Source: a virus
Taxonomy: Duplodnaviria > Caudoviricetes
IMG/VR virus record: IMGVR_UViG_3300046740_000679
Span: 1-53,185 of that record
Length of the DNA stretch: 53,185 bases
Strand: one strand, 5' to 3'
Positions within the stretch are counted from its first letter, which is position 1. Each line of letters opens with the position of its first letter. The notes under the pieces were generated by a model, which had not been told where the DNA came from, did no database searches, and was given only the letters and a program-made list of their open reading frames with translations. Shown here one piece after another: positions 549 to 32,322 of the stretch. The position numbers and the translations under genes are program-made.

Positions 549-794
549 CTATCCGATTGCCTGCCCGACGCGCATCGCGCCGAGCGTGCCGGATCGCTCG
601 GGCGCGACGGCGGCCTTGTTCGCCCACATGAGGGCCTGCTCGAGATTCGTCAGCGCGAGGGCCTTCTCGCGGCTACCGTGGAGCGCGTCGAGCGCCTCGC
701 GGAAGTCCTTCGCCTTCGACCGAAAGACGTCGATGGCGGTCAGCTGGTTCTCGGTCGGCTCGTGGTAGTCGAACGCGTCGAAGGCTTCGGTCAT
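549..794 (-). CDS. Acb2/Tad1-like hairpin-domain protein (candidate anti-defence nucleotide sponge), 81 aa
   Basis: FDYHEPT...FRSKAKDF...SREKALALTNLEQALMWANKA resembles the Tad1 C-terminal motif SRENACALTHVEEALMW and the FxYHxP...SREKSLALTKLEE family. Confidence 0.65.
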   Translation of the reverse strand: MTEAFDAFDYHEPTENQLTAIDVFRSKAKDFREALDALHGSREKALALTNLEQALMWANKAAVAPERSGTLGAMRVGQAIG

Positions 795-873
795 GGTCGT
801 CTCTCGCTTCGCGTGCGGGCAGTCGTCGTTGTAGCAACCGGGCGAGCAACGCATTGGCAGCCCTCGAAGAGTG

Positions 874-1223
874 ACGGTGCCGGTGTGGGGGGCCAGCGTT
901 CCCGTAATCCGTTGCGGCTCGCATCCGAGGCCCCACCGGCCGCGTTTTGGGTATTCCGTGATCGAGACGGGGCGTCCCCTCGTCTCCGTTGGCGTGACGT
1001 TATTCGACGCTGAAAACAGTCCGCACCGCGACGCGTCCGCCCCCGCATCCTTTGCAGGCGCCGGGGACGTCGACATTCACGACGGCTTGGTCGGAGGCGT
1101 CGGCGCGGGCCTCGTTCGCGCGGCCTCGGAGCTCCAACGGGTTCGCGACGTCTGCCCCGCAATCGCGGCAGCTTCCCGTCACGCGCAGTCCGAAGCCGAC
1201 GTCTACGCCCACACCGGCACCGT
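874..1223. repeat. Perfect 16-bp inverted repeat pair (874-889 and 1208-1223)
   Basis: ACGGTGCCGGTGTGGG at 874-889; CCCACACCGGCACCGT at 1208-1223. Confidence 0.9.
1000..1212 (-). CDS. Small zinc-ribbon protein (70 aa), probably leaderless
   Basis: CRDC...CKGC; GTG start 6 nt after an extended -10-like TGcTACGGT (1227-1219). Confidence 0.55.
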   Translation of the reverse strand: MGVDVGFGLRVTGSCRDCGADVANPLELRGRANEARADASDQAVVNVDVPGACKGCGGGRVAVRTVFSVE

Positions 1224-11024: not shown

Positions 11025-11176
11025 CGTCGCCCCTTGCGCGGCTTGCACGGCCGCCTGAACGGATCGGTCTCTTCACGCGGGAGAATCGCGGCGAGGCCGA
11101 CGACGAACGCGAGGGTCATCGCGAGCTCGAAGACCGCGCTCGCGACGCGGAACGTGGAGGCGAGGCGGCGGGTCAC
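11021..11176 (-). CDS. Small membrane protein (51 aa)
   Basis: Hand-translated; hydrophobic AVFELAMTLAFVVGLAAIL; coupled at both ends. Confidence 0.45.
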   Translation of the reverse strand: MTRRLASTFRVASAVFELAMTLAFVVGLAAILPREETDPFRRPCKPRKGRR

Positions 11177-11748
11177 GAGACACCTCCGAGGACGCGCGCG
11201 ACGTATTCGTCAGAGCCGGCCCACGCGTGGATCGGGAACGGCTCGCTCGTCTTCGGGAGCATGAGCGGGTGACAAGGCTCGTCGTCCTTCGTCCACTCAA
11301 GCGCGTGGACGTCGTTCGGCTTTGCGATCGCGGCCAGGAGCGCGAGGACGTCCTGCGCGCGAACGTCGAGCTTCAGCGCGGTGACGTTCGCGCCCCACGC
11401 GGCGATGATGCGATTCGCTTTGCGGGCGACGCGCGCGATCGTGGCGTCGTTCTCGGGGCCGATCGGATCGGCGACGGTGAGCAGCCCGCGCGGCTTCGTG
11501 GATCGGAACGCGAAGAGGTTGCAGACGTCGAGCGCGCCGAAGCCCCAGCCGTGCGCGAAGCGGATGCAACGCGTGATCGTCGGGTCCGGATTGTCGGCAT
11601 CCGCGGTGCTCGGGTTGAGCATCACGAAGAGGCAGCGATTCGTGACGTCGCCCCAATCGCGCGTGAGGTGGTACCGATAGAGGCCGCACGCGCTGAACTT
11701 CGCGGTGCCGACCGGGGCGGTGACGCCGGGGAGGAGGAGCGCGCTCAA
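11173..11748 (-). CDS. DUF1643 family protein
   Basis: FSACGLYRYHLTRDW, FVMLNPSTAD..DPTITRC, NLFAFRST.P, AAWG, PCHPL. Confidence 0.88.
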   Translation of the reverse strand: MSALLLPGVTAPVGTAKFSACGLYRYHLTRDWGDVTNRCLFVMLNPSTADADNPDPTITRCIRFAHGWGFGALDVCNLFAFRSTKPRGLLTVADPIGPENDATIARVARKANRIIAAWGANVTALKLDVRAQDVLALLAAIAKPNDVHALEWTKDDEPCHPLMLPKTSEPFPIHAWAGSDEYVARVLGGVS

Positions 11749-11972
11749 GACGTCACCGCCTTCCGAAGGCAGAAGCCGCAGCAGACGAACTTCGTGCCGG
11801 GCTTCCACGCCGCGGCATCGAGGACGATCGTGCGGTGCTCCTTGCAAGACGGACAAAACACCGCGCGCCTGATCGGGCGACGCGTGCTCACGTCGGTCGA
11901 CATGATCGGGAGGACCTCGACGCGCTCGGCGCGAAGGTCGAAGGGGACGTGGCGGGAGTGGGCGAAGATCAC
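11745..11972 (-). CDS. Small zinc-ribbon protein
   Basis: CPSC...CCGFC. Confidence 0.5.
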   Translation of the reverse strand: MIFAHSRHVPFDLRAERVEVLPIMSTDVSTRRPIRRAVFCPSCKEHRTIVLDAAAWKPGTKFVCCGFCLRKAVTS

Positions 11973-12448
11973 GACGCCGCTCCCTCGACGCCGACGCGGC
12001 CCCGTTCACGCCACGCTTGGGCGAACCACTGGAGCCGGCGACCGAGCCCGAGACCAAGAAGCGGCTCACGAATGCGGACGCAATTGACGTCGTGCCGCGA
12101 CTCAAAGACCTCTCGGATCGGCGCGGTGTAGTCGGCGCCGGCGAGGAGCAAGAGCTCGTACGGCCCACAACCCACGAACTCGCGATAGAGCTTGTTCGCA
12201 ATGCCCACGGCCCATTGCTGCGCGTCCTTCGGCTTCAGCCGATCGTCGTACGGCTCGATCCGATATTCGGGTTTGAGGAGGCCGTAGCGCGCCGAGACGA
12301 TGCGCCATTCGTCGCACTCCTCGGCGTACGCCCGAGCCGCTCGGAAGAGCGGGCCGGTGTAGAGGTCCTTCGCCCGCGCGGGTTTGAGGAGCTTGCTCTT
12401 GCCGCATCCCACCAGGGCGATGGTGATCGGCACGGACGGGGGGCTCAC
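11969..12448 (-). CDS. DUF6884 (YaaA-like) family protein
   Basis: VGCGKSK...AKDLYTGPLF...IVSARYGLL...IEPYD...LAGADY...PLLGLGLGRRLQW. Confidence 0.8.
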   Translation of the reverse strand: MSPPSVPITIALVGCGKSKLLKPARAKDLYTGPLFRAARAYAEECDEWRIVSARYGLLKPEYRIEPYDDRLKPKDAQQWAVGIANKLYREFVGCGPYELLLLAGADYTAPIREVFESRHDVNCVRIREPLLGLGLGRRLQWFAQAWRERGRVGVEGAAS

Positions 12449-13818
12449 GAGGCCGCTCCCGTCGCCAGCGTCGGAGCGAACTCCGAGGCCCAGTAGGCCA
12501 CGACCGCCGAGGCGACCCCTGGAATCCTCGGCGTTTCCGATCGCACATCGCCGTACAGAACCGGCACAACCGAGGCTTCGCGCTTACGCTGATAGGCCTT
12601 TTTATTCCCTACGGAACGCGTGTTTTCGCTCCGCTTTCCTAAAGCGAAGGTCGGTAGTTCGAATCTCCCTGGGGGCGCGTCTTTTACCGCTGCTTTTGGC
12701 TCGTTTTGGCCTTGGTTGTTCGAGGCTTCCGCAGTCGTTTGAGCTTCAGTCGGTACAGAATCGACACACTCGGGCAGCGCGGCGACCGGGCGCGGAGCGT
12801 GGGCCTCGAGCTGGGCTTCGACGAGGGCGCCCATCTCTTCGCCCGTCGCCTTCGCGTACGTGGTCTGCGCGAGCTTGTCGGTCGAGTGACGGAGCATCTT
12901 CGACACCGCGTTGATATTCACGCCGGCGAGCAGGTGCCACTTCGCGAACGTGCGCCTTAGGTCGTTCGGACCGAGGCGAGGGATGCCCGCGCGAACGCAT
13001 GCGGCGGCCATATCGCGGACCATCTTCCCCCACGGATGAAAGAGAACGTCCGCACCCGGCGCGTGCTTCAACGCCTCGTCGAGGATCGGCGCGTTGACCC
13101 GCGTGATCGGAATGTCGTCGTCCGCGAAGGCCGTCTTCGTTCCGTGAAGGTGAACGATGCCGCGCGCCTTGTTCGTGTCGCGTCGACGCGCACGGAACGA
13201 CTCCTGATATCGCGCGCCGGTCGCGACGATGTAGAGGATGTGTGCGCCGCGGCGGCGATCGAATTGCTTGAGGAGCGCAGTGAGCTCGTCGGGCGTGGCG
13301 AAGCGATCGCGCGGTTTGTGGCCCGACCCGAAGTAAGGCGGCATGACTTGCGCGACGCTGCCGTGGAACGTGCCGAGGTGAATGGCGATCTTGAGCACCA
13401 TTCGAAGGTGGCCAAGCTCCATGTAGATCGTGTGGTCGCTCGCGGTCTCGCTTTGGCGCTTGTCGATGTACTCCATCACGAGCTTCGCCGTGATCCGAAG
13501 CATCGGGAGATCGCCTCCCCAGATGCGCGCGAAGTGACCGAGCTTCCCCTTCGCCTTGCTGAGCGTGGCCGCGCTGCGTTTGCGGCGCACCATGTCGAGG
13601 CGGAGTGCTTCTACCGCGCCGGCGAAGCTCGTCGCCGCCGCGGCTGCGTAACGTGGATCGGCGGCGACGCGCTCGAGCTCGTTCGCGCGCGCGACGGCCG
13701 CAGCTTCGTCGGTGCACTTGGTGCTCTTTCGGACCTTTCGTCCGGCCGGTCCGAGGACATGGGCCCAGATGGTCTTGCCTCGCCAGAAGAGTCTTGCGTC
13801 GCGGAGCTTCGGTTGCAT
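12445..13818 (-). CDS. int: Tyrosine integrase with attP inside its 3' region
   Basis: TGARYQE (R), GTKT (K), NDLRRT (HxxR variant), LRHS, TTYAK (Y); GAAGAGGG RBS before ATG 13818. Confidence 0.92.
   Translation of the reverse strand: MQPKLRDARLFWRGKTIWAHVLGPAGRKVRKSTKCTDEAAAVARANELERVAADPRYAAAAATSFAGAVEALRLDMVRRKRSAATLSKAKGKLGHFARIWGGDLPMLRITAKLVMEYIDKRQSETASDHTIYMELGHLRMVLKIAIHLGTFHGSVAQVMPPYFGSGHKPRDRFATPDELTALLKQFDRRRGAHILYIVATGARYQESFRARRRDTNKARGIVHLHGTKTAFADDDIPITRVNAPILDEALKHAPGADVLFHPWGKMVRDMAAACVRAGIPRLGPNDLRRTFAKWHLLAGVNINAVSKMLRHSTDKLAQTTYAKATGEEMGALVEAQLEAHAPRPVAALPECVDSVPTEAQTTAEASNNQGQNEPKAAVKDAPPGRFELPTFALGKRSENTRSVGNKKAYQRKREASVVPVLYGDVRSETPRIPGVASAVVAYWASEFAPTLATGAAS
12553..12768. 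repeat. Direct repeats flanking the attP core (putative integrase arm-type sites)
   Basis: GTACAGAACCGGCACA (12553-12568) and GTACAGAATCGACACA (12753-12768), 14/16 identical and 200 bp apart. Confidence 0.65.
12632..12678 (+). other. attP core: 3' half of tRNA-Arg(CCT), not a complete tRNA
   Basis: CGCT-TTCCTAA-AGCG anticodon arm, AGGTC, GGTAG-TTCGAAT-CTCCC T arm, TGGGGGCG acceptor strand; no D arm or 5' half upstream. Confidence 0.85.
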
Positions 13819-13985
13819 CCCTCTTCCCCATTCCTTTCGAACCACGCGATCAGAGCTTGGCGGGTCACGCGCAGGTGGCGGCCGACCCAGTGATGTTTCA
13901 TCTCGTGCATGCGGAGATAGGCCGTGCTCACGGGAACGCGGAGCTCGGCGGCGACGTCGTCGACGGTGAGGAGATCGAGCGCCAC
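13611..13985 (-). CDS. xis: Excisionase-like HTH protein overlapping the 5' end of int
   Basis: LLTVDDVAAELRVPVSTAY...VGRHLRVTRQALIAWF (HTH_17-type). Confidence 0.8.
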   Translation of the reverse strand: MALDLLTVDDVAAELRVPVSTAYLRMHEMKHHWVGRHLRVTRQALIAWFERNGEEGCNRSSATQDSSGEARPSGPMSSDRPDERSERAPSAPTKLRPSRARTSSSASPPIHVTQPRRRRASPAR

Positions 13986-13986
13986 G

Positions 13987-14160
13987 TCAGGCCCCCGTCG
14001 TGTTCTTCGGCGACTCGCCGGGTCGCTTGGCCGCCTTGCGCACTTCTTCGATCGCCCACTCGCCGAGCTTCGTCGCGACCGCGGTCACGATCGCGGCGGC
14101 GGCCGTGATGGCGAGGTAGCGGCGGTTCTCACCGTTCGCGGAGATCATCGTCATATCCAT
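13987..14160 (-). CDS. Small hypothetical protein (57 aa)
   Basis: Hand-translated MDMTMISANGENRRYLAITAAAAIVTAVATKLGEWAIEEV; GGAAGGA RBS. Confidence 0.55.
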   Translation of the reverse strand: MDMTMISANGENRRYLAITAAAAIVTAVATKLGEWAIEEVRKAAKRPGESPKNTTGA

Positions 14161-14186
14161 TCCTTCCGTACGTCTTCAGCCACTGC

Positions 14187-14434
14187 GTTCGCTTGCGACG
14201 AGCCCGCGCCCCCTATCGAGTCGGGCTCGTCGCAAACGATCGAATCGCCGCGAGGCCCCCCACGCTCGAAGGAAGGACGGGGGAGCGGAGCCCTCTTCCT
14301 TCGAGCGTGGGGACGGCACCGGCGATTCTTCGGGCCACATACCGGCGATGTGGTGACCCCGACGAAGCATTGCGGCTATCGGTCAGCGCGTGGGTAATGA
14401 GCCCGTCCGCGCGAACCGCCTCACCGCTCCGCAG
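14187..14434. ncRNA. Multi-hairpin structured region (candidate ncRNA or cis-regulatory RNA)
   Basis: 14-bp IR 14193-14206/14222-14235; 18-bp IR 14258-14275/14295-14312 nested in a 9-bp IR 14242-14250/14320-14328; further stems at 14335-14353 and 14371-14433. Confidence 0.5.
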
Positions 14435-14460
14435 CGTCGATCCCGAATCTTGGACGATGA

Positions 14461-14709
14461 TCACGCGACGCTCCGCCGCGACGTCGTCGCCTCTTCATCG
14501 TGAAAGTCGAGGTGCTGGCTGAACGACCACGCGACGAGGCGCGGCGCGAGCTCGGAACGCCACGCGACGGCGACGCCCGTCTCGAGGTCGACGAGGATTG
14601 AACCTAAAGGCGCGCGCTCGGCCTCTTCGGCGCACGTGGCAATGAAGGGCGAAACTGCGTCTATCTCGGCGAGGATGTCGCCTCCGTTCTGGATGTAATA
14701 ACGACCCAT
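14461..14709 (-). CDS. Hypothetical protein
   Basis: GGAGG RBS before MGRYYIQNGG. Confidence 0.6.
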   Translation of the reverse strand: MGRYYIQNGGDILAEIDAVSPFIATCAEEAERAPLGSILVDLETGVAVAWRSELAPRLVAWSFSQHLDFHDEEATTSRRSVA

Positions 14710-14802
14710 GGTTCCTCCCTTCCCCACTTCACGCTTGGCCAGTCGCCGGGCCCTTCACACGCTTTCAGTCACCGCTGATCGCCACGTCATTTTTCGCGAC
14801 CG

Positions 14803-15186
14803 CTAGTCGTTGTCCGCCGACGACGTGTCGATGACTTGGAGCACCGCGCGGAGCGCATCGCGCACAAGATTGCGGCACGCCGGACCGCCATCGGCGGCGA
14901 GTGCGACGGCGACGTCGAGACGAAGGCCGTTACTCCCCTCGGGCGACGTCCACTGTTGAACGAGACGACGAGAAACCCCCGCGGCGGCGGCGACTTGGCG
15001 CTGCGAGGCGTGCTCCTCGATCGCGCAACGAAGGATGCTCGCGACAACGAGCTTCGAATACGCAAACGAGGTCGCGCGAATGGGTCCACCCACGCGTTTC
15101 GCGCGCACGTGCACTCGGTGAACAGTGGCCACTTCGGCCACCATTGCGGACGCGGCGGGAAAGCTGGAAGAAGACGCGTGGGCCAT
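14803..15186 (-). CDS. HTH transcriptional regulator (CII-like position)
   Basis: SQRQVAAAAGVSRRLVQQWTSPE; GGAGG RBS; immediately downstream of cro. Confidence 0.7.
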   Translation of the reverse strand: MAHASSSSFPAASAMVAEVATVHRVHVRAKRVGGPIRATSFAYSKLVVASILRCAIEEHASQRQVAAAAGVSRRLVQQWTSPEGSNGLRLDVAVALAADGGPACRNLVRDALRAVLQVIDTSSADND

Positions 15187-15188
15187 GA

Positions 15189-15446
15189 TCAACCTCCGTC
15201 CGTTCCGGTGCGCGCGGGCTCGGTCAGGGCGGCTGGCTCCTCGATGGCCGGCTCCGCCCACGCTTCGAGAGGCACACCTGCTTCGCGGCGGATCGCGACG
15301 ATGTGCCTCGCCGTAGGAGTCGTGCCGTTGCACCAGTTGCTGACCGTCGCCTGGCGCACCTTCAGCCGCTTTGCCAGCGCCTCTTGCGTGGTCTGCGTGA
15401 GCCGCATCCACTCGCGCAGCATCAGCGTGCCCTTCGTGATCACCAT
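15189..15446 (-). CDS. cro: Cro-like XRE HTH repressor
   Basis: TQEALAKRLKVRQATVSNWCNGTTP; divergent from cI. Confidence 0.8.
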   Translation of the reverse strand: MVITKGTLMLREWMRLTQTTQEALAKRLKVRQATVSNWCNGTTPTARHIVAIRREAGVPLEAWAEPAIEEPAALTEPARTGTDGG

Positions 15447-15449
15447 GCA

Positions 15450-15482
15450 ACGACTGATAACAGTCGTCTGTTCGACAGTCAA
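15450..15482 (-). promoter_or_regulatory. Leftward promoter and operators of the switch
   Basis: Palindrome ACGACTG-ATAA-CAGTCGT (15450-15467) and a second site TCTGTTCGACAGTC (to 15480); minus-strand TTGACT-N17-TATCAG 7 nt before the cro ATG. Confidence 0.6.
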
Positions 15483-15530
15483 GCGTGTACTAGTAATTCC
15501 CCATCAATTGACGCGAGACCGTATATTCCA

Positions 15531-16037
15531 ATGACACTCATGTCGCCGACGCCAAAGAAGCCAGGCGCATCAACCTTCTCTCCTGAAGAGGTCGCGAAGC
15601 TTCGCGACGTGGCGAAACGCGTCCACGCGGAAAAGTTCGGCGGCAACCAAAGCGCGATGGCCCGCGCGTTTGGCGTTCGTCAATCCGCGGTTCGGCGTTG
15701 GGTCACGAAGGATTCCGAGGATGCGGGCGGGATGAGCTACGGCATCGCGCGCAAGCTTTGTGAGATGGACGGGACTACACTAGAGTCCGCTCTCGGCTGG
15801 CCCGCGTCCAGGGGGGACGACATGACGCAACGTGGCGATGCGATCGGTCGCGAATCGGTGACCGACCCTGAGCTCGCGCTCGCATTGGGTCACAATTACG
15901 GCCGCTGGCACGAGGCTGTCGTCGCGGCGGCGGTAGTGCTTGCGCGGAGAGGAGAGCGGCATTCCAAAGTTGAATGGCAGGCCCTTCTCGACGAATTGCA
16001 AAGCCGTATCGCGGACATGCTCGATCGTAAGAGCTAG
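15531..16037 (+). CDS. cI: CI-like immunity repressor (XRE HTH, no S24 peptidase domain)
   Basis: GNQSAMARAFGVRQSAVRRWV HTH; divergent from cro; start is 15531 or 15540. Confidence 0.75.
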   Translation: MTLMSPTPKKPGASTFSPEEVAKLRDVAKRVHAEKFGGNQSAMARAFGVRQSAVRRWVTKDSEDAGGMSYGIARKLCEMDGTTLESALGWPASRGDDMTQRGDAIGRESVTDPELALALGHNYGRWHEAVVAAAVVLARRGERHSKVEWQALLDELQSRIADMLDRKS

Positions 16038-16337
16038 GTGCAACAAAAAGTTGGGCCGTTCCGCGTTGCAGAGCTGAAACATCTGGGCATACAGTTGCGC
16101 GTTATGGCTGCAGCTCAAGCTCTCCAACTTCCGCCGCTTACGTTTGATGACAAGCGTTCCCGGTTCGCGCAGGCCCTCGGTCTTTGCCGTGCATTTTGGC
16201 CGGCGCGCTGGTCGGAGACGACGCTCGCTGCTGCAGGGGAAATGCACGAGTGCCTTGCGCCCGAGACGCTCCCGGAGGGGCTCGACGAGATCGAGGCGCG
16301 GTGGGCGCCGCTATTAGTGTCGGCTAAGCGTCTGTAG
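16038..16337 (+). CDS. HTH-less paralogue of the repressor C-terminal domain
   Basis: AQALG..RWSETTLAAA..LDEIEAR versus cI ALALG..RWHEAVVAAA..LDELQSR; in frame directly after the cI TAG. Confidence 0.55.
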   Translation: MQQKVGPFRVAELKHLGIQLRVMAAAQALQLPPLTFDDKRSRFAQALGLCRAFWPARWSETTLAAAGEMHECLAPETLPEGLDEIEARWAPLLVSAKRL

Positions 16338-16366
16338 ATACGTGCACTTATTGCTTTCTATCAGAG

Positions 16367-16400
16367 TACTGTTGACAGTCTATTAGTTAGGTAATAGATT
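16367..16400 (+). promoter_or_regulatory. Strong sigma70 rightward early promoter with an overlapping operator
   Basis: TTGACA (16372-77)-N17-TAGATT (16395-400); operator TACTGTTGACAGTC is 11/14 identical to GACTGATAACAGTC at 15452. Confidence 0.85.
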
Positions 16401-16422
16401 CTTCTCCGTGGAGGGAAGGATC

Positions 16423-16563
16423 TTGAACCACGACGACAACGACCACGGCACGCCCTGCCGCGATTGCGGCGGTCTCGATCACACCGACGACTGCCTCGAC
16501 ATTCGCGACCGTCGCGAGGCCCGCGAGGACAAGGCCGCCGACTTCTATCGAGGTGCGCGATGA
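16423..16563 (+). CDS. Small early protein (CxxC..H...C)
   Basis: TTG after GGAGGGAAGG; stop coupled to the next ATG. Confidence 0.5.
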   Translation: MNHDDNDHGTPCRDCGGLDHTDDCLDIRDRREAREDKAADFYRGAR

Positions 16564-17161: not shown

Positions 17162-17331
17162 GCGCCGTCGTGAAGACGTGCGGATGCGGCTCCGAGCTCA
17201 CCGCCGAGGCGTGGAGCGCTCTCCCGTTCGTCGGCATTCAGGACCTCGGGGAGGGTGAGCGCGCCGAGCTTCGAAACCATGACTGCGGCTCGACGATCGC
17301 GATCGAGCTTTCACCGGGAGACGGCGAATGA
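17158..17331 (+). CDS. Small hypothetical protein (KTCGCG...ELRNHDCGST)
   Basis: GTGA/ATGA coupling. Confidence 0.55.
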   Translation: MSAVVKTCGCGSELTAEAWSALPFVGIQDLGEGERAELRNHDCGSTIAIELSPGDGE

Positions 17332-17462
17332 AGTTCAGCGTTCGTTCAAGGCTGGTGTGGCTCGCGATGATGCACGGCGTCTGTCCGCTGGCCGCGTTCG
17401 AGATGACGGCGCTCGAGTTTGCGGCGCGGCTTCGGGCTGCGCGCCAAGGGAGAATGTCATGA
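17328..17462 (+). CDS. Small hypothetical protein (44 aa)
   Basis: Fills the gap with ATGA overlaps. Confidence 0.4.
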   Translation: MKFSVRSRLVWLAMMHGVCPLAAFEMTALEFAARLRAARQGRMS

Positions 17463-18367
17463 CGACGACGAACGGCGCCGCGACCACGCTCGCGCGCAAA
17501 GACGACAACTTTTTCGACGACGAGACGATCGGCCTTATCCGCCGAACGATCGTGCCGGGCGCGACGGACGACGAATTCATGTCGCTGATGGCGGTCGCGC
17601 GCCTCCGTCGCCTGAACCCGCTCTTGAAGCAGATCCACTTCGTGAAGCGGCAGACGTACGACGACACCGCGAAGGAATACGTCATGCGCTGGGCGTTCCA
17701 GGTCGCGATTGACGGCTTTCGCCTGATCGCCGAGCGCACGGGCGCGTACGACGGCCAGGACGAGCCGGAGTACGAGCTCGCACCCGACGGCTCGATCATC
17801 CGCTGCCGCGTGAAGATCTACCGCAACGACAAGACGCGTCCCTTTGTGGGCATCGCCGACTGGACCGAATTCGTGCAGAAGAAGCGCGACGGCGGCGTCA
17901 CCGCCATGTGGCGAGACAAGCCGCGCCTTATGCTCGCGAAGTGCGCCGAAGCGATGGGGTTCCGCAAGGCGTTCCCGGAAGAGACGTCGGGCTTCTACAT
18001 CGAAGAGGAGATGAAGCGCGACGAGATGGAGGGCGAGGTCGTCCCGACGCTCGGTGGCACCGTGAACGGCAAGCGCGCGACGACGACGGCCGCTCCTACG
18101 ACGCCGAAGCAACTCGCGAGCGCCGAGGCATCGAAGGCCGCGGCCGCGGAGCTCCTCAAGGCGCTCGAGACGTGCGACGAGCGCGCGGGCGTGCTCCGCA
18201 TCGGCGCACAGATCGACGAGCGGGCGACGCGCGGCGAGCTCCTCATCCAAGATCGCGCGACGTGCCTCGGCGGCTACACGGATGCGCTGAAGCGGGTCGC
18301 CAAGCCAAGGTCGCCGCCGGCCACGCCTCCTGCGAATGCGCCGCCCGCGCAAGGAGGTGTCGCGTGA
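17459..18367 (+). CDS. bet: Bet/RecT-family ssDNA annealing protein
   Basis: ATDDEF...LNPLLKQIHFVKR...QVAIDGFRLIAERTGAYDG...W.DKPRLMLAKCAEAMGFRKAFPEETSGFYIEEEM. Confidence 0.92.
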   Translation: MTTTNGAATTLARKDDNFFDDETIGLIRRTIVPGATDDEFMSLMAVARLRRLNPLLKQIHFVKRQTYDDTAKEYVMRWAFQVAIDGFRLIAERTGAYDGQDEPEYELAPDGSIIRCRVKIYRNDKTRPFVGIADWTEFVQKKRDGGVTAMWRDKPRLMLAKCAEAMGFRKAFPEETSGFYIEEEMKRDEMEGEVVPTLGGTVNGKRATTTAAPTTPKQLASAEASKAAAAELLKALETCDERAGVLRIGAQIDERATRGELLIQDRATCLGGYTDALKRVAKPRSPPATPPANAPPAQGGVA

Positions 18368-28309: not shown

Positions 28310-31300
28310 TTAGATCCCGTACTTCGTGTGGATATAGGCATTCACGACGGCGCGATCGCCCGTCGACAGCTTCGAGGGCCACGCGAAGAGGAATGCGATC
28401 ATCCCGATGTAATCGGAGATGACGCCTTTGCCGACGCGATGCGTGCCGTAACCGACCGTGTTGCTGGCCTGCGTATAGATCTGTGTGCCGTTGAACGAGG
28501 CCGTCCACTCCGAGGCCGTCGCGATCGAGTTGTAGCTCCAAGGCAGAGCCCATTTGCCGGACGCCGGTGCAAAACCCGTCGTCTGTCGCGTCGTTGAACC
28601 GCTGCCGTCGTACAGCTGACGATTCGATGCGAGCGGGAACAAGTTCGCCTGCGTGTCGTCGGTGAAGCAGAACGGCGATACTTGCGTGGTGTCGTCCGCG
28701 TTTTGGCAGACGGCGAACAGGTCGAGGCCCGTCAGCGTGGGGAACGATGCGAAGGTGAGGGTGTCGCCGCCACCGACGAATCGCACGGACTTCTGGCCAT
28801 TGATGCCTGAGCTAACAAGCGCAGGTAGGAAGCTTGGAGGGCTGAGCGTGCGTCCATTGCCGCTCTGGTCGGCCCACGCCGTGATGTTCGACCCCGATAG
28901 CGTCATACCGACGTCGCCGCTGAATCCGAACGCGAAGCCCGCGGGCAGGTAAGCGAATGCGTTCGCCTTGGTACCGGTGCCGCCCGGAGTCGTGACGGAG
29001 AGCGTGTTGTTTGCGCTGGCTGCCACCGCAGCCGTGGTGCCCGTGATCGTCGTCGAGTTGACGACGGTGAACGATGTGACGTTGACGCCGCCAATCGATA
29101 CGACCGTGGCGCCCGTGAGATTGGTGCCGGTAAGCGTGAACGACGTGCCGCCAGATGCTGTTCCGAAGTCGGGTAGTATCGACGTGACAGTGGGAACCGA
29201 CGTTGCTCCAGAAACGGTGGATGTGCACGTTCCGACGATGTGACCATTCAGATCGGTCACGGTGATCGTGTCGACCCCGTTTCCGGGCCCCGCGGTGATG
29301 ATTCCAGAACTGGAGACGCTGCCGCCACTGTTGTTCGTCGTGACTGCGTATGTGTAATCGCCGGCGCCCATTACCGTGAGCTGCTGCGTGGTGTTGATCG
29401 TGAGCGAGACGGTGGTGGGGGTGACCGTGCCCGGCATTGCCTGAGGCGTCACGATCATCCACTCCGACAACTGCAAGGCGGCGACATTGAGCACGATGCC
29501 CGTGGTCGTCCGCGCTGCTACGAGGCACATGTTGCCCGGTGTCGCCTCGTAAAGTCCGCCGTAGTAGAAACCGCCGAAAACCGGCTCGAATTCGAGAATC
29601 GACGAGCTCCACGCCGTGTTCCACGCGGAACCCGGATCCTGATAGAAGATCCCACCCTTCACGGATGATCCGATGCGACGGATCAGAACAACGCGACGCC
29701 CAGATGCGAGTTTTCGCACCTGTTGGCCCGAGGAGTGTCCCGGCAGATTGACGGTCACCGGTGCGGCCCAAGTCACGCCGTGATCGGTCGAGTGCGACGC
29801 GAGCATCGGAAGTGAACCGGACGTGTCGTCACGAATGAGCGTGCGTAGCTCGGAGCCCTCGAAGTCAAAACCGGGCTCGACGTACTTTTTCGAGTCGGTC
29901 ATCCCGTTCGCGATGCGATTGCGTGTCCACGTCGCGCCCGCGTTCGTGGTGATGTAATCCCATACCGAATAGAAGGTGTCGCTCGACCCCTCTTTCGTCC
30001 ACACCGCCATATGCAAGGTGCCTGGCGTCGTGGGGTCCTCAACCGGCGCGCATTGCGTCGCAGACCACGTCGGCGTGCCTGTCGTGATCGCGTTCCAGGT
30101 CCCGGGCCAGATGGGGGATCCGTCAACGTTGAACGTCGTCGCTCTGCGCCACACGACGTTCACGAACGCCAGCGAGACGTCGTAGGTCATCGTGACCTGA
30201 ATCAAGCTGCCATCGGCGAGCGGCTCGCTCGTCTTGAGGTCGCTGTAGAGCGTCGTCGCGCTCGTATTGATGACGGTTGGACCCGACCACGTCAGCCCTC
30301 CATCCGAGGACAAGAACGCGTCGCTATGGTCGCTATGCTGCGGCCCGATCGACTCCGATGTATTGGTTACGGTCGCATAGAGCTTTCCGCCCGGAAGCTT
30401 TGAGACCCAGGGGAACCCTGCCGACTGAGTGGGGTCGGCATAGAGCGGGTCGCCTTCGAGGAGAACGCTGGGCTTCGTCCCGAAGCGTGCGGACAGCCTC
30501 GTATTGAGCGCCGCGACGTCGGAGTCGGAGAGATAGCTGTCGTAAAGTTCGACCGCCTTGTAGTCGCCGGCGGCGCCACCAATCTGAAGTTTGCCCGTGG
30601 TACCGGCCGCATACGAACGCGCGGGTGAGATGGTCCAGCCGCCGACCTTGGCCGACTGGCCGTCGACCATTACGTCGCAATGCGTATCCGAAAGACGAAC
30701 GACGATCGTCTGATTCTTGAACGGGATAAAGACCCCGCTCATGATCGCGCCCGCGATGCTGAGCGAGTCGAACACCCACGAAGAGCCGTCCCATTGGCGA
30801 ACGCTGATCGATCGGCCGTAGAAGATATTGTTCCCCTCGTCGCCGATCTGGACCTGGATGCCGGCCTTCGTGCCGCCCTCGGTGGTGTCGAGCAACGTGA
30901 CGAGCGTGCTGGTCGTGATCGACCGATAGCGCCAGACGAACGCCATCGTGCACGGGCCGCTATTCAGGAACGCGGCGGCTCCGCCCGGCGTGAGTAGCTT
31001 GTTCGCGGTCGTCGTACGAATGACGTTGCCGCCATCGACCGAATCGGTGACCACGCGCGGCGTTCCCGCAATGCTGGTGGCCACACTCCATACCGTGATG
31101 AGCTCGCCCGTCGCGGTGATCGATGCGGGCACATCCCCGTAGAAGCTAAGTGCCGGCGTGGGTCCGCCGCCGCCCGAAGGAGTGACTGCGATGACGAGAG
31201 GCAAAAGCGCGACGCGGAAGTTGAGTGTGCGGCCGCCGACCGATCCTGAGCCCCGCGCAATCAGATCGTTTCCGCTCACTGCGAGCGACGCGGATGCGCC

Positions 31301-31912
31301 CGTGAGCGTGCCCGCGGCGGTTCCACCGGCGTCGCCCACGTCCGTGACCGGAGCTCCGCCGCCCGTGCGTGCGAGCGTGATCGTGCGCGTCTGACGCCAC
31401 GTCTTCGTGGGCTGCGCCGGATCGCCCGCGACGAACGACGCCGAGACATCGATCACCGAGTCGTCGGGGACGGGATAGGTAAGAAGCGTGGAGGTCTGCG
31501 CGCCCGTGGTCGTGCCGGTGCCCGTAAGCGTGTCGCTCGATCCCCCGCCGGCGCCCGGAGCGGCTGCGACGATGACGAGCGCGCCCGAGGCGACGGTGTC
31601 TCCAGGTTGAGCGCTGCCCGTCGGGATCGACTTCAGCGAGAGCTGCACCTGCGTGCTGCTGAGGATGTTGTAGACGATATAGAAGCCGCCGCCGTTGACG
31701 GCATAAGGCAAGAGCGCCGCCATCGTCGCGGTGCTGACAACATGGACGGTGATCAGCGCGTCGATCGCGGGCTGCACGAAGCTCGCGGTTGTCGACGTAT
31801 ACGCGGTGAGCCCGGGGCCACCGGGATCGCCGGTGTCGCCCTTCGGGCCCGTGGGACCCGGCGGCCCTTGAACCTGCTCGGTGACGAGCACGATCGAATC
31901 AGAATCGCTCAT
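28310..31912 (-). CDS. Multi-domain tail fibre or receptor-binding protein (collagen, LamG-like, sialidase/BNR propeller, Ig/IPT-TIG, LamG-like)
   Basis: GPPGPTGPKGDTGDPG; Asp-boxes SSDGGLTW, TTNAGATW, STDHGVTW; PTVTSILPDFGTASGGT; AWADQSGNG; ATG 31912 coupled to the upstream stop. Confidence 0.8.
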   Translation of the reverse strand: MSDSDSIVLVTEQVQGPPGPTGPKGDTGDPGGPGLTAYTSTTASFVQPAIDALITVHVVSTATMAALLPYAVNGGGFYIVYNILSSTQVQLSLKSIPTGSAQPGDTVASGALVIVAAAPGAGGGSSDTLTGTGTTTGAQTSTLLTYPVPDDSVIDVSASFVAGDPAQPTKTWRQTRTITLARTGGGAPVTDVGDAGGTAAGTLTGASASLAVSGNDLIARGSGSVGGRTLNFRVALLPLVIAVTPSGGGGPTPALSFYGDVPASITATGELITVWSVATSIAGTPRVVTDSVDGGNVIRTTTANKLLTPGGAAAFLNSGPCTMAFVWRYRSITTSTLVTLLDTTEGGTKAGIQVQIGDEGNNIFYGRSISVRQWDGSSWVFDSLSIAGAIMSGVFIPFKNQTIVVRLSDTHCDVMVDGQSAKVGGWTISPARSYAAGTTGKLQIGGAAGDYKAVELYDSYLSDSDVAALNTRLSARFGTKPSVLLEGDPLYADPTQSAGFPWVSKLPGGKLYATVTNTSESIGPQHSDHSDAFLSSDGGLTWSGPTVINTSATTLYSDLKTSEPLADGSLIQVTMTYDVSLAFVNVVWRRATTFNVDGSPIWPGTWNAITTGTPTWSATQCAPVEDPTTPGTLHMAVWTKEGSSDTFYSVWDYITTNAGATWTRNRIANGMTDSKKYVEPGFDFEGSELRTLIRDDTSGSLPMLASHSTDHGVTWAAPVTVNLPGHSSGQQVRKLASGRRVVLIRRIGSSVKGGIFYQDPGSAWNTAWSSSILEFEPVFGGFYYGGLYEATPGNMCLVAARTTTGIVLNVAALQLSEWMIVTPQAMPGTVTPTTVSLTINTTQQLTVMGAGDYTYAVTTNNSGGSVSSSGIITAGPGNGVDTITVTDLNGHIVGTCTSTVSGATSVPTVTSILPDFGTASGGTSFTLTGTNLTGATVVSIGGVNVTSFTVVNSTTITGTTAAVAASANNTLSVTTPGGTGTKANAFAYLPAGFAFGFSGDVGMTLSGSNITAWADQSGNGRTLSPPSFLPALVSSGINGQKSVRFVGGGDTLTFASFPTLTGLDLFAVCQNADDTTQVSPFCFTDDTQANLFPLASNRQLYDGSGSTTRQTTGFAPASGKWALPWSYNSIATASEWTASFNGTQIYTQASNTVGYGTHRVGKGVISDYIGMIAFLFAWPSKLSTGDRAVVNAYIHTKYGI

Positions 31913-32322
31913 CGGGTCACCGGGAGGTCGATGGTTACGGGGCCCGCGAGGACGGGGAATGAGGTCCCATCGGGTGTGCCCGACGGGTCGAGCCAGCAGT
32001 CCCAAACGCCGGAGAAGAGGGTCCGCTGCGGTTGGGCGCGCGCGTCGCCGGTATAGAGCGCGCGGAGCGAGAGGCTTTGTGCGGCAGTGATCACGACGAG
32101 GATCGATCCGTCGCTCGCGCCGAGCGTGATGCCGTTGCCCGCAGTCAGCGAGAGGAGCGGCGACGGATCCGTCTTCTTCTGGCGGATCATCGCGCGCGCG
32201 CCGTAGCCCGCGAACGCGAACGGCTGGAGATCGCCGCCGCTGACGACGAAGCGGAGCGAGGACGCAGCTCCGGGTCGCAGAACCAAGAGGCGTTCCGCAG
32301 GTAGCTTGATGAGGGCCGGCAT
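31909..32322 (-). CDS. Fibre adaptor / BppU-like beta-sandwich protein
   Basis: GYGARAMIR...LLSLT.GNGITL...G.I.V.ITAAQS...GVWD; directly precedes the fibre. Confidence 0.6.
   Translation of the reverse strand: MPALIKLPAERLLVLRPGAASSLRFVVSGGDLQPFAFAGYGARAMIRQKKTDPSPLLSLTAGNGITLGASDGSILVVITAAQSLSLRALYTGDARAQPQRTLFSGVWDCWLDPSGTPDGTSFPVLAGPVTIDLPVTR

Follow-up and report, generated by a model that had tools for sequence, protein, structure and literature searches.

We analysed the 53,185-base IMG/VR virus record IMGVR_UViG_3300046740_000679 (Duplodnaviria; Caudoviricetes), the genome of an uncultivated soil phage, referred to in its entirety as the window, in which the gene of a tyrosine integrase (int, protein Int) reads through a tRNA gene fragment that we take to be the core of the phage attachment site (attP). 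In our reading, to which we assign a probability of roughly 0.78, this is a temperate phage that carries a complete attP in the 3' third of a lambda-type (heterobivalent) tyrosine integrase gene, and its integration would swap the Int tail. The record has direct terminal repeats, is rated 100% complete and ranges from 62 to 69% in G+C content. An earlier note on this DNA, made without database searches, had already placed attP, as the 3' half of tRNA-Arg(CCT), inside int. That placement is now strongly supported by repeats that flank the fragment, by 46 of 98 informative integrase loci and, in three genomes of relatives, by both element junctions. The argument rests on the following features.

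12445-13845, minus strand: tyrosine integrase open reading frame (ORF), 466 amino acids from a GTG; folded body about residues 10-350, tail 351-466
12632-12678, plus strand: putative attP core, a tRNA-Arg(CCT) 3' fragment (tRNA positions 28-73 plus one base)
12636-12642, plus strand: anticodon loop, with CCT at 12638-12640; by analogy, the presumed strand-exchange region
12753-12768: int-proximal repeat GTACAGAATCGACACA (plus strand), a candidate arm-type site, read in the int frame as CVDSVP
12553-12568: int-distal repeat GTACAGAACCGGCACA (plus strand), a candidate arm-type site, read in another codon phase as VPVLY
12601-12618, minus strand: conserved box RSVGNK, residues 410-415, past the presumed crossover and at the opening of a predicted helix (412-424)
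12445-12448, minus strand: GTGA, shared by the int stop TGA (12445-12447) and the GTG (12446-12448) that starts a DUF6884 gene

A tRNA-Arg(CCT) fragment is read in antisense by int

Over Int residues 390-405 (APPGRFELPTFALGKR, 12631-12678), the frame reads a tRNA-like stretch in antisense, with the int stop 61 codons further on, at 12445-12447. The earlier note had described an antisense tRNA 3' half at 12632-12678, about 60 codons before the stop, and both parts of that description held, the stretch corresponding to positions 28-73 of tRNA-Arg(CCT). On the plus strand, 12632-12677 presents in order the anticodon stem, loop, variable loop, T arm, 3' acceptor strand and discriminator base. Its first 21 nt (12632-12652), which cover the anticodon arm and the variable loop, occur unchanged in a genuine tRNA-Arg(CCT) from a Polyangiaceae metagenome-assembled genome (MAG; locus L003), and 37 of 47 ungapped positions equal those of the tRNA-Arg(CCT) at another locus, L040.

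ARAGORN called no tRNA gene in the window, and the Rfam tRNA model scored the fragment at 13.7 bits, under its gathering score of 29, which suits a partial tRNA without its 5' half. The T arm and acceptor end are a natural tRNA module, present in seven metagenome tRNAs (two Arg-GCG, two Arg-TCT, one Arg-TCG and two Glu-TTC) in which positions 51 and 63 pair and the 5' acceptor strand matches. An anticodon-centred class of attP is described in the Islander paper (PMC4383910), and the fragment agrees with it in holding the tRNA 3' part from the anticodon region on, with the caveat of a U:C mismatch in its T stem that is weighed below. A further stretch of 17 nt, 12714-12730, is 76% identical to the T-arm part 12653-12669 and lies 61 nt off. 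It was considered as a second tRNA-like element and rejected; it forms no stem, and we take it as chance or as a decayed older fragment.

The integrase and the repeats flanking the fragment

The probable int start is the ATG at 13818, which gives 457 amino acids; the MQPKLRD start encoded there is common to homologues, and the database copy P0001 also has 457 amino acids. Pfam Phage_integrase (PF00589) matches Int residues 183-333 (E = 1.1e-8). R212, K237, R297/R298, H320 and Y330 are invariant in a 39-sequence alignment, which provides the catalytic residues of a tyrosine recombinase, with Y330 (466-residue numbering; codon 12856-12858) as the catalytic tyrosine. The AlphaFold2 model of Int is confident over about residues 10-350 (mean predicted local distance difference test score, pLDDT, 79.9), and its fold matches lambda Int, XerA, Tn1549 Int and Cre, with full-length lambda Int among the best matches (1z1g_A, 358 aligned columns). 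The modelled N-terminal domain consists of three strands (19-44) and a helix (47-62). Beyond the catalytic tyrosine, the int frame runs on for 136 codons and spans the attP core in the manner of the myxophage Mx8, with no stop between Y330 and 12447; the earlier note had named a stop before 12680 as the sign that would speak against its proposal, and none is there.

Two 16-nt direct repeats lie 200 bp apart, one on each side of the tRNA core, and a degenerate repeat pattern gave just these two exact matches across the window. In the alignment of homologues, a 'VPxLY' motif appears on both sides of the tRNA stretch, and in the DNA of five relatives (L002, L088, L089, L090 and L003) these motifs are direct DNA repeats of the same type. 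Repeats of 16-27 nt flank the core in 16 of 24 free forms, the window included, at a spacing of 174-254 bp; their reading frames differ in 10 of the 16, and many of the repeat units are made up of a pair of half-sites spaced about 10-11 bp. It is from this conservation and position in relatives that the repeat in the window draws its weight. The repeats look like arm-type Int sites, and because those on either side of the core also lie in the ORF, the entire attP would fall within int. The modelled N-terminal domain and the conserved flanking repeats may correspond to the arm-binding domain and the arm-type sites of a lambda-type integrase.

Relatives occur in integrated and free states

A protein search returned 100 Int homologues, mostly of 430-500 amino acids and sharing the tail. 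A search of genome contigs and viral contigs with the single Int sequence found no close relatives; an alignment-based scan found at least 116 relatives in species-representative genomes, of which 79 loci, nearly all in Myxococcota MAGs, were kept, and 28 further relatives are in viral contigs. We classed these 107 loci with local tblastn and ARAGORN (98 informative, 9 uninformative). In 40 of the 107, int terminates inside a complete tRNA gene that runs the opposite way (37 Phe-GAA, 2 Lys-TTT and 1 Met-CAT). Of the 12 such loci listed, 11 have the stop 11 nt from the tRNA 5' end, and in L068 the distance is 6 nt. The stop in such integrated relatives (for example, L019, 11162-11235) is a TGA in the antisense of the tRNA D-stem. 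Another six loci read through a complete antisense tRNA, among them L003 with its tRNA-Arg(CCT), so the int ORF overlaps a complete antisense tRNA at the homologous position in 46 of the 98 informative loci. Int stops short of a nearby tRNA in five loci. For the remaining 47, a complete tRNA is absent from the nearest 700 nt, and many are free forms, with an antisense-tRNA motif and then a tail of their own.

The two states can be compared directly for tRNA-Arg(CCT). L003 Int and the window Int share the residues FALGKR that end the antisense-tRNA stretch, and the preceding T-arm codons differ. After FALGKR, L003 Int continues as the antisense of the tRNA 5' half and the window Int as its own tail, SENTRSVGNK.... 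The decayed int of L040 ends four codons past the corresponding point, at a D-stem TGA, and so do the homologues P0009 and P0018. The D loop of L003 is one base longer, which shifts the frame, and its ORF continues for hundreds of codons. Judged by these two loci, the prophage Int of the window phage would stop four codons after residue 405 if the D arm of the host tRNA resembles that of L040, and would read into host DNA if the host D loop is one base longer, as in L003.

Both element junctions were located in three genomes (G407, G408 and G410), where they lie 52.9, 25.8 and 10.8 kb apart, respectively. The segment duplicated at these junctions is the tRNA 3' part as far in as position ~28-32, and two of the three genomes clearly have the flanking repeats shared out between the junctions. 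An attP that spans the int tail, with exchange in or 3' of the anticodon loop, would be expected to leave this structure. A search for attL and attR, proposed in the earlier note, thus succeeded for relatives but found none for this phage itself. The 52.9-kb element of G407 may be an island rather than a phage. At the far junction in G408, the sequence outside the partial tRNA copy (L118, contig C80, ~296-341) resembles the int-side flank of the near junction, which suggests tandem or remnant elements at the G408 tRNA-Phe. Some free-form relatives lie on short contigs in non-myxobacterial MAGs, namely L002 (Candidatus Limnocylindria), L035 and L036 (Chloroflexota), L055, L062 and L078 (Peribacteria) and L053 (Gallionella); these may be phage contigs mis-binned by composition, and their host labels need care.

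Gene order around int

Three neighbouring genes bear on what integration would separate.

13611-13985, minus strand: xis/uoi-like HTH_17 ORF, with HTH_17 at residues 5-52 (E = 1.4e-8)
15189-15482, minus strand: HTH_3/CI-type regulator gene, heading the leftward gene string that contains xis and int
11969-12448, minus strand: DUF6884 gene, the first gene that integration would part from int

The overlap of xis with the 5' end of int, seen in the earlier note, was recovered as an HTH_17 (helix-turn-helix) ORF that overlaps int by 208 nt, counted from the int ATG. The conserved part of this ORF, residues 1-57, ends at the int start, and the remainder shares its DNA with int in a different frame. 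In 23 of the 107 loci, int is immediately preceded by an HTH_17 gene on its own strand (23 of 23 tblastn matches there).

Directly downstream of int, on the minus strand, are the DUF6884 (11969-12448) and DUF1643 (11173-11700) genes. The minus-strand string further holds genes for a C5 cytosine methylase, DUF5131, RusA and an Acb2/Tad1-like protein, and runs on across the record ends to a large terminase, a Mu-type portal and a prohead protease. The earlier note had all modification, replication and late genes downstream of int on one strand; this stands for the methylase, DUF5131, RusA, terminase, portal and protease, but not for RecT, whose gene (17255-18367) lies on the plus strand within a shorter plus-strand block.

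Judging by the hosts of relatives and by the tRNA match, the host of this phage is probably a myxobacterium. Part of the DUF6884 gene has 74% DNA identity to a stretch of Myxococcus phage Mx4. At 549-1076 (minus strand), the window encodes a 175-residue protein with an Acb2/Tad1 hairpin domain (Pfam E = 1.2e-16), a candidate sponge of cyclic-nucleotide defence signals in this presumed myxophage. A 1,231-residue protein with BNR/sialidase-like and IPT/TIG domains, encoded at 28310-32005 (minus strand) in a region of lower G+C content (0.62), is probably a tail fibre or receptor-binding protein.

Proposed course of integration

We propose that attP comprises the 3' part of tRNA-Arg(CCT), with the anticodon stem at one end and the discriminator base at the other, flanked by an arm-type repeat on either side. 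While free or excised, the genome would produce full-length Int, in which the body is followed by a disordered linker with the antisense-tRNA codons and by the conserved basic box RSVGNK, and the stop codon overlaps the next gene. When this site recombines with the host tRNA-Arg(CCT), most probably within the anticodon loop, the tRNA would be restored beside int, and Int residues 406-466 would give way to the products of the tRNA 5' half and host DNA; in relatives, the replacement is usually a D-stem stop after a few codons. Integration would also carry the tail-coding piece, and with it DUF6884, the methylase, RusA and the genes for packaging and structure, to the far prophage end, away from xis-int and from any promoter that serves them.

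The topology of the gene map implies that xis-int would lose its connection to DUF6884, the methylase, RusA and the genes for packaging and structure. The earlier note had proposed that integration replaces the Int tail and disconnects the downstream genes; given the same topology, this would apply to the last 61 codons and to the genes just named, but not to RecT on the other strand. The split might serve as a regulatory switch, which would depend on the promoters involved.

Conservation of the Int tail

The int tail differs from the body in codon usage. At third codon positions, G+C content drops from 0.83 in the body to 0.60 over residues 346-432 and then rises to 0.79 for the final 34 codons; the dip over 346-432 is as expected if the DNA doubles as a site. 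Residues 353-408 are predicted to be disordered (pLDDT <50), as are 426-443, and between them a short helix is predicted at 412-424 (pLDDT ~73). It is opened by RSVGNK, which would be encoded by the excised form only, since the box lies beyond the presumed crossover. Our catalytic-motif pattern recognized 71 of the 100 homologues and missed 29; of the 71, 40 have an RSxGNK-type box after the tRNA motif. Nine homologues carry ends typical of integrated forms.

The strongest competing explanation, to which we give substantial though minority weight, accepts attP as stated but holds that the tail peptide has no function: the frame would be kept open so that ribosomes cross the ~400-nt attP, which avoids polarity and couples the next gene, and the Int forms would be equivalent. 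The predicted disorder on both sides of the helix suits this explanation, as does the nature of the VPxLY 'motifs', which are DNA repeats translated in varying frames. Overlap with the start of the next gene, a GTG in the window, likewise accounts for the C termini ..AS and ..AA that are conserved in the alignment; of 26 long-tailed free forms, 17 have an NTGA end that overlaps a start codon, 12 of these with a downstream ORF of at least 60 amino acids. Set against this, the RSxGNK box is in frame in those 40 of 71 classifiable homologues although their tRNA targets differ, and the helix that it opens is predicted with moderate confidence. Integration of Mx8 changed the specificity of its Int, according to a 2018 review (PMC6070905).

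Codon comparisons point both ways. Third codon positions are the least conserved in the body (0.53-0.58 identity compared with L002). In the distal arm box, 7 of 8 third positions are identical in each of the two comparisons (L002 and L088), which points to constraint on the DNA. In the RSVGNK box, four synonymous changes over five conserved residues compared with L088 point to selection on the peptide, and this too tells against a functionless tail.

Evidence against the proposed site, and remaining alternatives

Several results weigh against our interpretation. For the tail, all 8 of 8 third positions of the RSVGNK box are identical to those of L002, which fits constraint at the DNA level and favours the functionless tail, and the codon comparison draws on the DNA of two close relatives only (L002 and L088). 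For the repeats, the pair in the window is not significant by itself, an equal-quality repeat having occurred in 17 of 50 shuffles. For the core, the T stem has a U:C mismatch between position 51 (12655, T) and position 63 (12667, C). A tRNA rebuilt with this mismatched stem may be impaired, or the fragment may have drifted; ARAGORN found no phage tRNA gene in the window to make up for a weakened tRNA-Arg(CCT). For the effect on gene expression, a consensus promoter and terminator scan of 11500-16500 gave one promoter-like and one terminator-like site, no excess over shuffles, which says nothing for or against the operon claim; and RecT and its neighbours lie on the opposite strand.

The integration site of this phage was not recovered either. 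The tRNA-fragment pattern was not found in the genomes of five relatives, in 401 sampled Myxococcota genomes with up to two mismatches or in 301 sampled genomes of the class of G001 with up to one mismatch, and a longer version had no match in viral contigs. None of the seven metagenome tRNAs found with the T-arm and acceptor pattern was Arg-CCT. In the run that is probably the source, a single contig of 53,088 bases covers the phage stretch, and no hybrid junction contig was seen, although contigs cannot reveal rare forms. Two other runs held only short pieces of the phage stretch among their contigs. Contigs of the source run with a tRNA-Arg(CCT) that matches 12635-12669, which account for the only loose ends at the core, were considered as the bacterial attachment site (attB) and rejected, as they come from a different organism and their acceptor stem does not fit.

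These failed searches for attB, with the T-stem mismatch, the sub-threshold Rfam score and the silence of ARAGORN, are what could be expected if the tRNA-like fragment were a relic of an earlier site or a chance likeness, and the phage integrated elsewhere or never. We consider this quite unlikely: the fragment shares 21 nt with a real tRNA-Arg(CCT) at the exact position at which integrated relatives have complete tRNAs, and it sits between conserved flanking repeats in an intact xis-int module. It is scarcely credible that the long ORF is a by-product of high G+C content and that the real Int ends at about residue 350 through an unrecognized frameshift or an assembly error, for although open frames are often long at 65-68% G+C and one antisense frame across the tail region is also free of stops, the int frame has none where the other two sense frames have three each, it stays open for at least 60 codons in 26 of the 47 relatives without a nearby tRNA (for off-frame runs, 24 of 94), the source contig agrees with the window letter for letter across this region and dozens of homologues share the in-frame tail.

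Comparison with known systems

Among myxophages, Mx9 reportedly also has its attP within int, and Mx8 is said to target tRNA-Asp. The precedent invoked in the earlier note, that attP of Mx8 lies within int and that integration changes the Int C terminus, is confirmed by the review cited above (PMC6070905), according to which integration makes a new int 3' end that alters rather than abolishes Int activity, and Mx9 follows a similar principle. The Islander paper likewise mentions that attP is crossed by some integrases, those of Mx8 and SSV among them (PMC4383910). As in the window, the int ORF of Mx8 crosses attP and reads the core as antisense tRNA, with a comparable ..GLEP.. stretch about 110 residues before the Int end. 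Mx8 also has a small HTH gene, uoi, that overlaps the start of int, and its early and late genes come next on the same strand.

The proteins themselves differ. The two integrases have no detectable similarity (best BLASTP E = 0.2), which gives no sign of common descent with the Mx8 lineage, nor do Mx8 uoi and the window HTH protein (E = 33). The putative target of the window phage is tRNA-Arg(CCT), and the box that follows the presumed crossover in its family was not seen in Mx8 Int. A tblastn search of 50,697 phage records with the window Int returned distant integrases only (at most 27.5% identity), none of them from a Myxococcus phage. As judged from these comparisons, the Mx8 design recurs in a different lineage of integrases, one that is widespread and whose reading frame takes in the whole attP. 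A full-text literature search found no description of this lineage and no family-wide myxobacterial survey; it was a limited search and is not proof of absence.

As modelled, the window integrase shares with lambda Int its fold, including an N-terminal arm-binding-like domain, and direct repeats flank the core in both systems, but attP of lambda lies downstream of the int stop, whereas the putative arms and core of the window all lie inside the translated ORF. Lambda integration separates a downstream regulatory element from int (sib retroregulation). Archaeal integrases of the SSV type resemble the window in that the attachment site is in the recombinase gene and integration alters the protein; SSV integration splits the integrase gene near its 5' part. 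In the mycobacteriophages BPs and Brujita, which have integration-dependent immunity, the crossover falls in a coding sequence, and the C termini of the free and integrated products differ. The gene split there is the repressor, whereas in the window it would be the integrase.

Implications for myxobacterial phages and islands

With at least 116 relatives of this integrase and 46 of 107 loci that run into a tRNA gene, the peculiarity of Mx8 is not a one-off. A more far-reaching proposal is possible but doubtful: that these relatives form a large lineage of Myxococcota phage and island integrases in which the whole attP is translated, the box is present only in the full-length Int of the excised or infecting form, a D-stem stop in the host tRNA ends the prophage form, and translation through attP is coupled to the early and late gene string. 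If this were true, lytic genes could be expressed only after excision, and the direction of recombination would be biased by the two Int forms. A conserved peptide that is made from the excised form only would offer a testable handle on that direction.

For annotation, odd long integrase tails, or integrase ends inside tRNA genes, are real and mark the exact borders of islands. For uncultivated myxophages, the tail encodes the target tRNA and so bears on host prediction. Finally, the integrases of Mx8 and Mx9 are the standard tools for integration in myxobacteria, and new tRNA-specific, compact int-attP cassettes would be useful.

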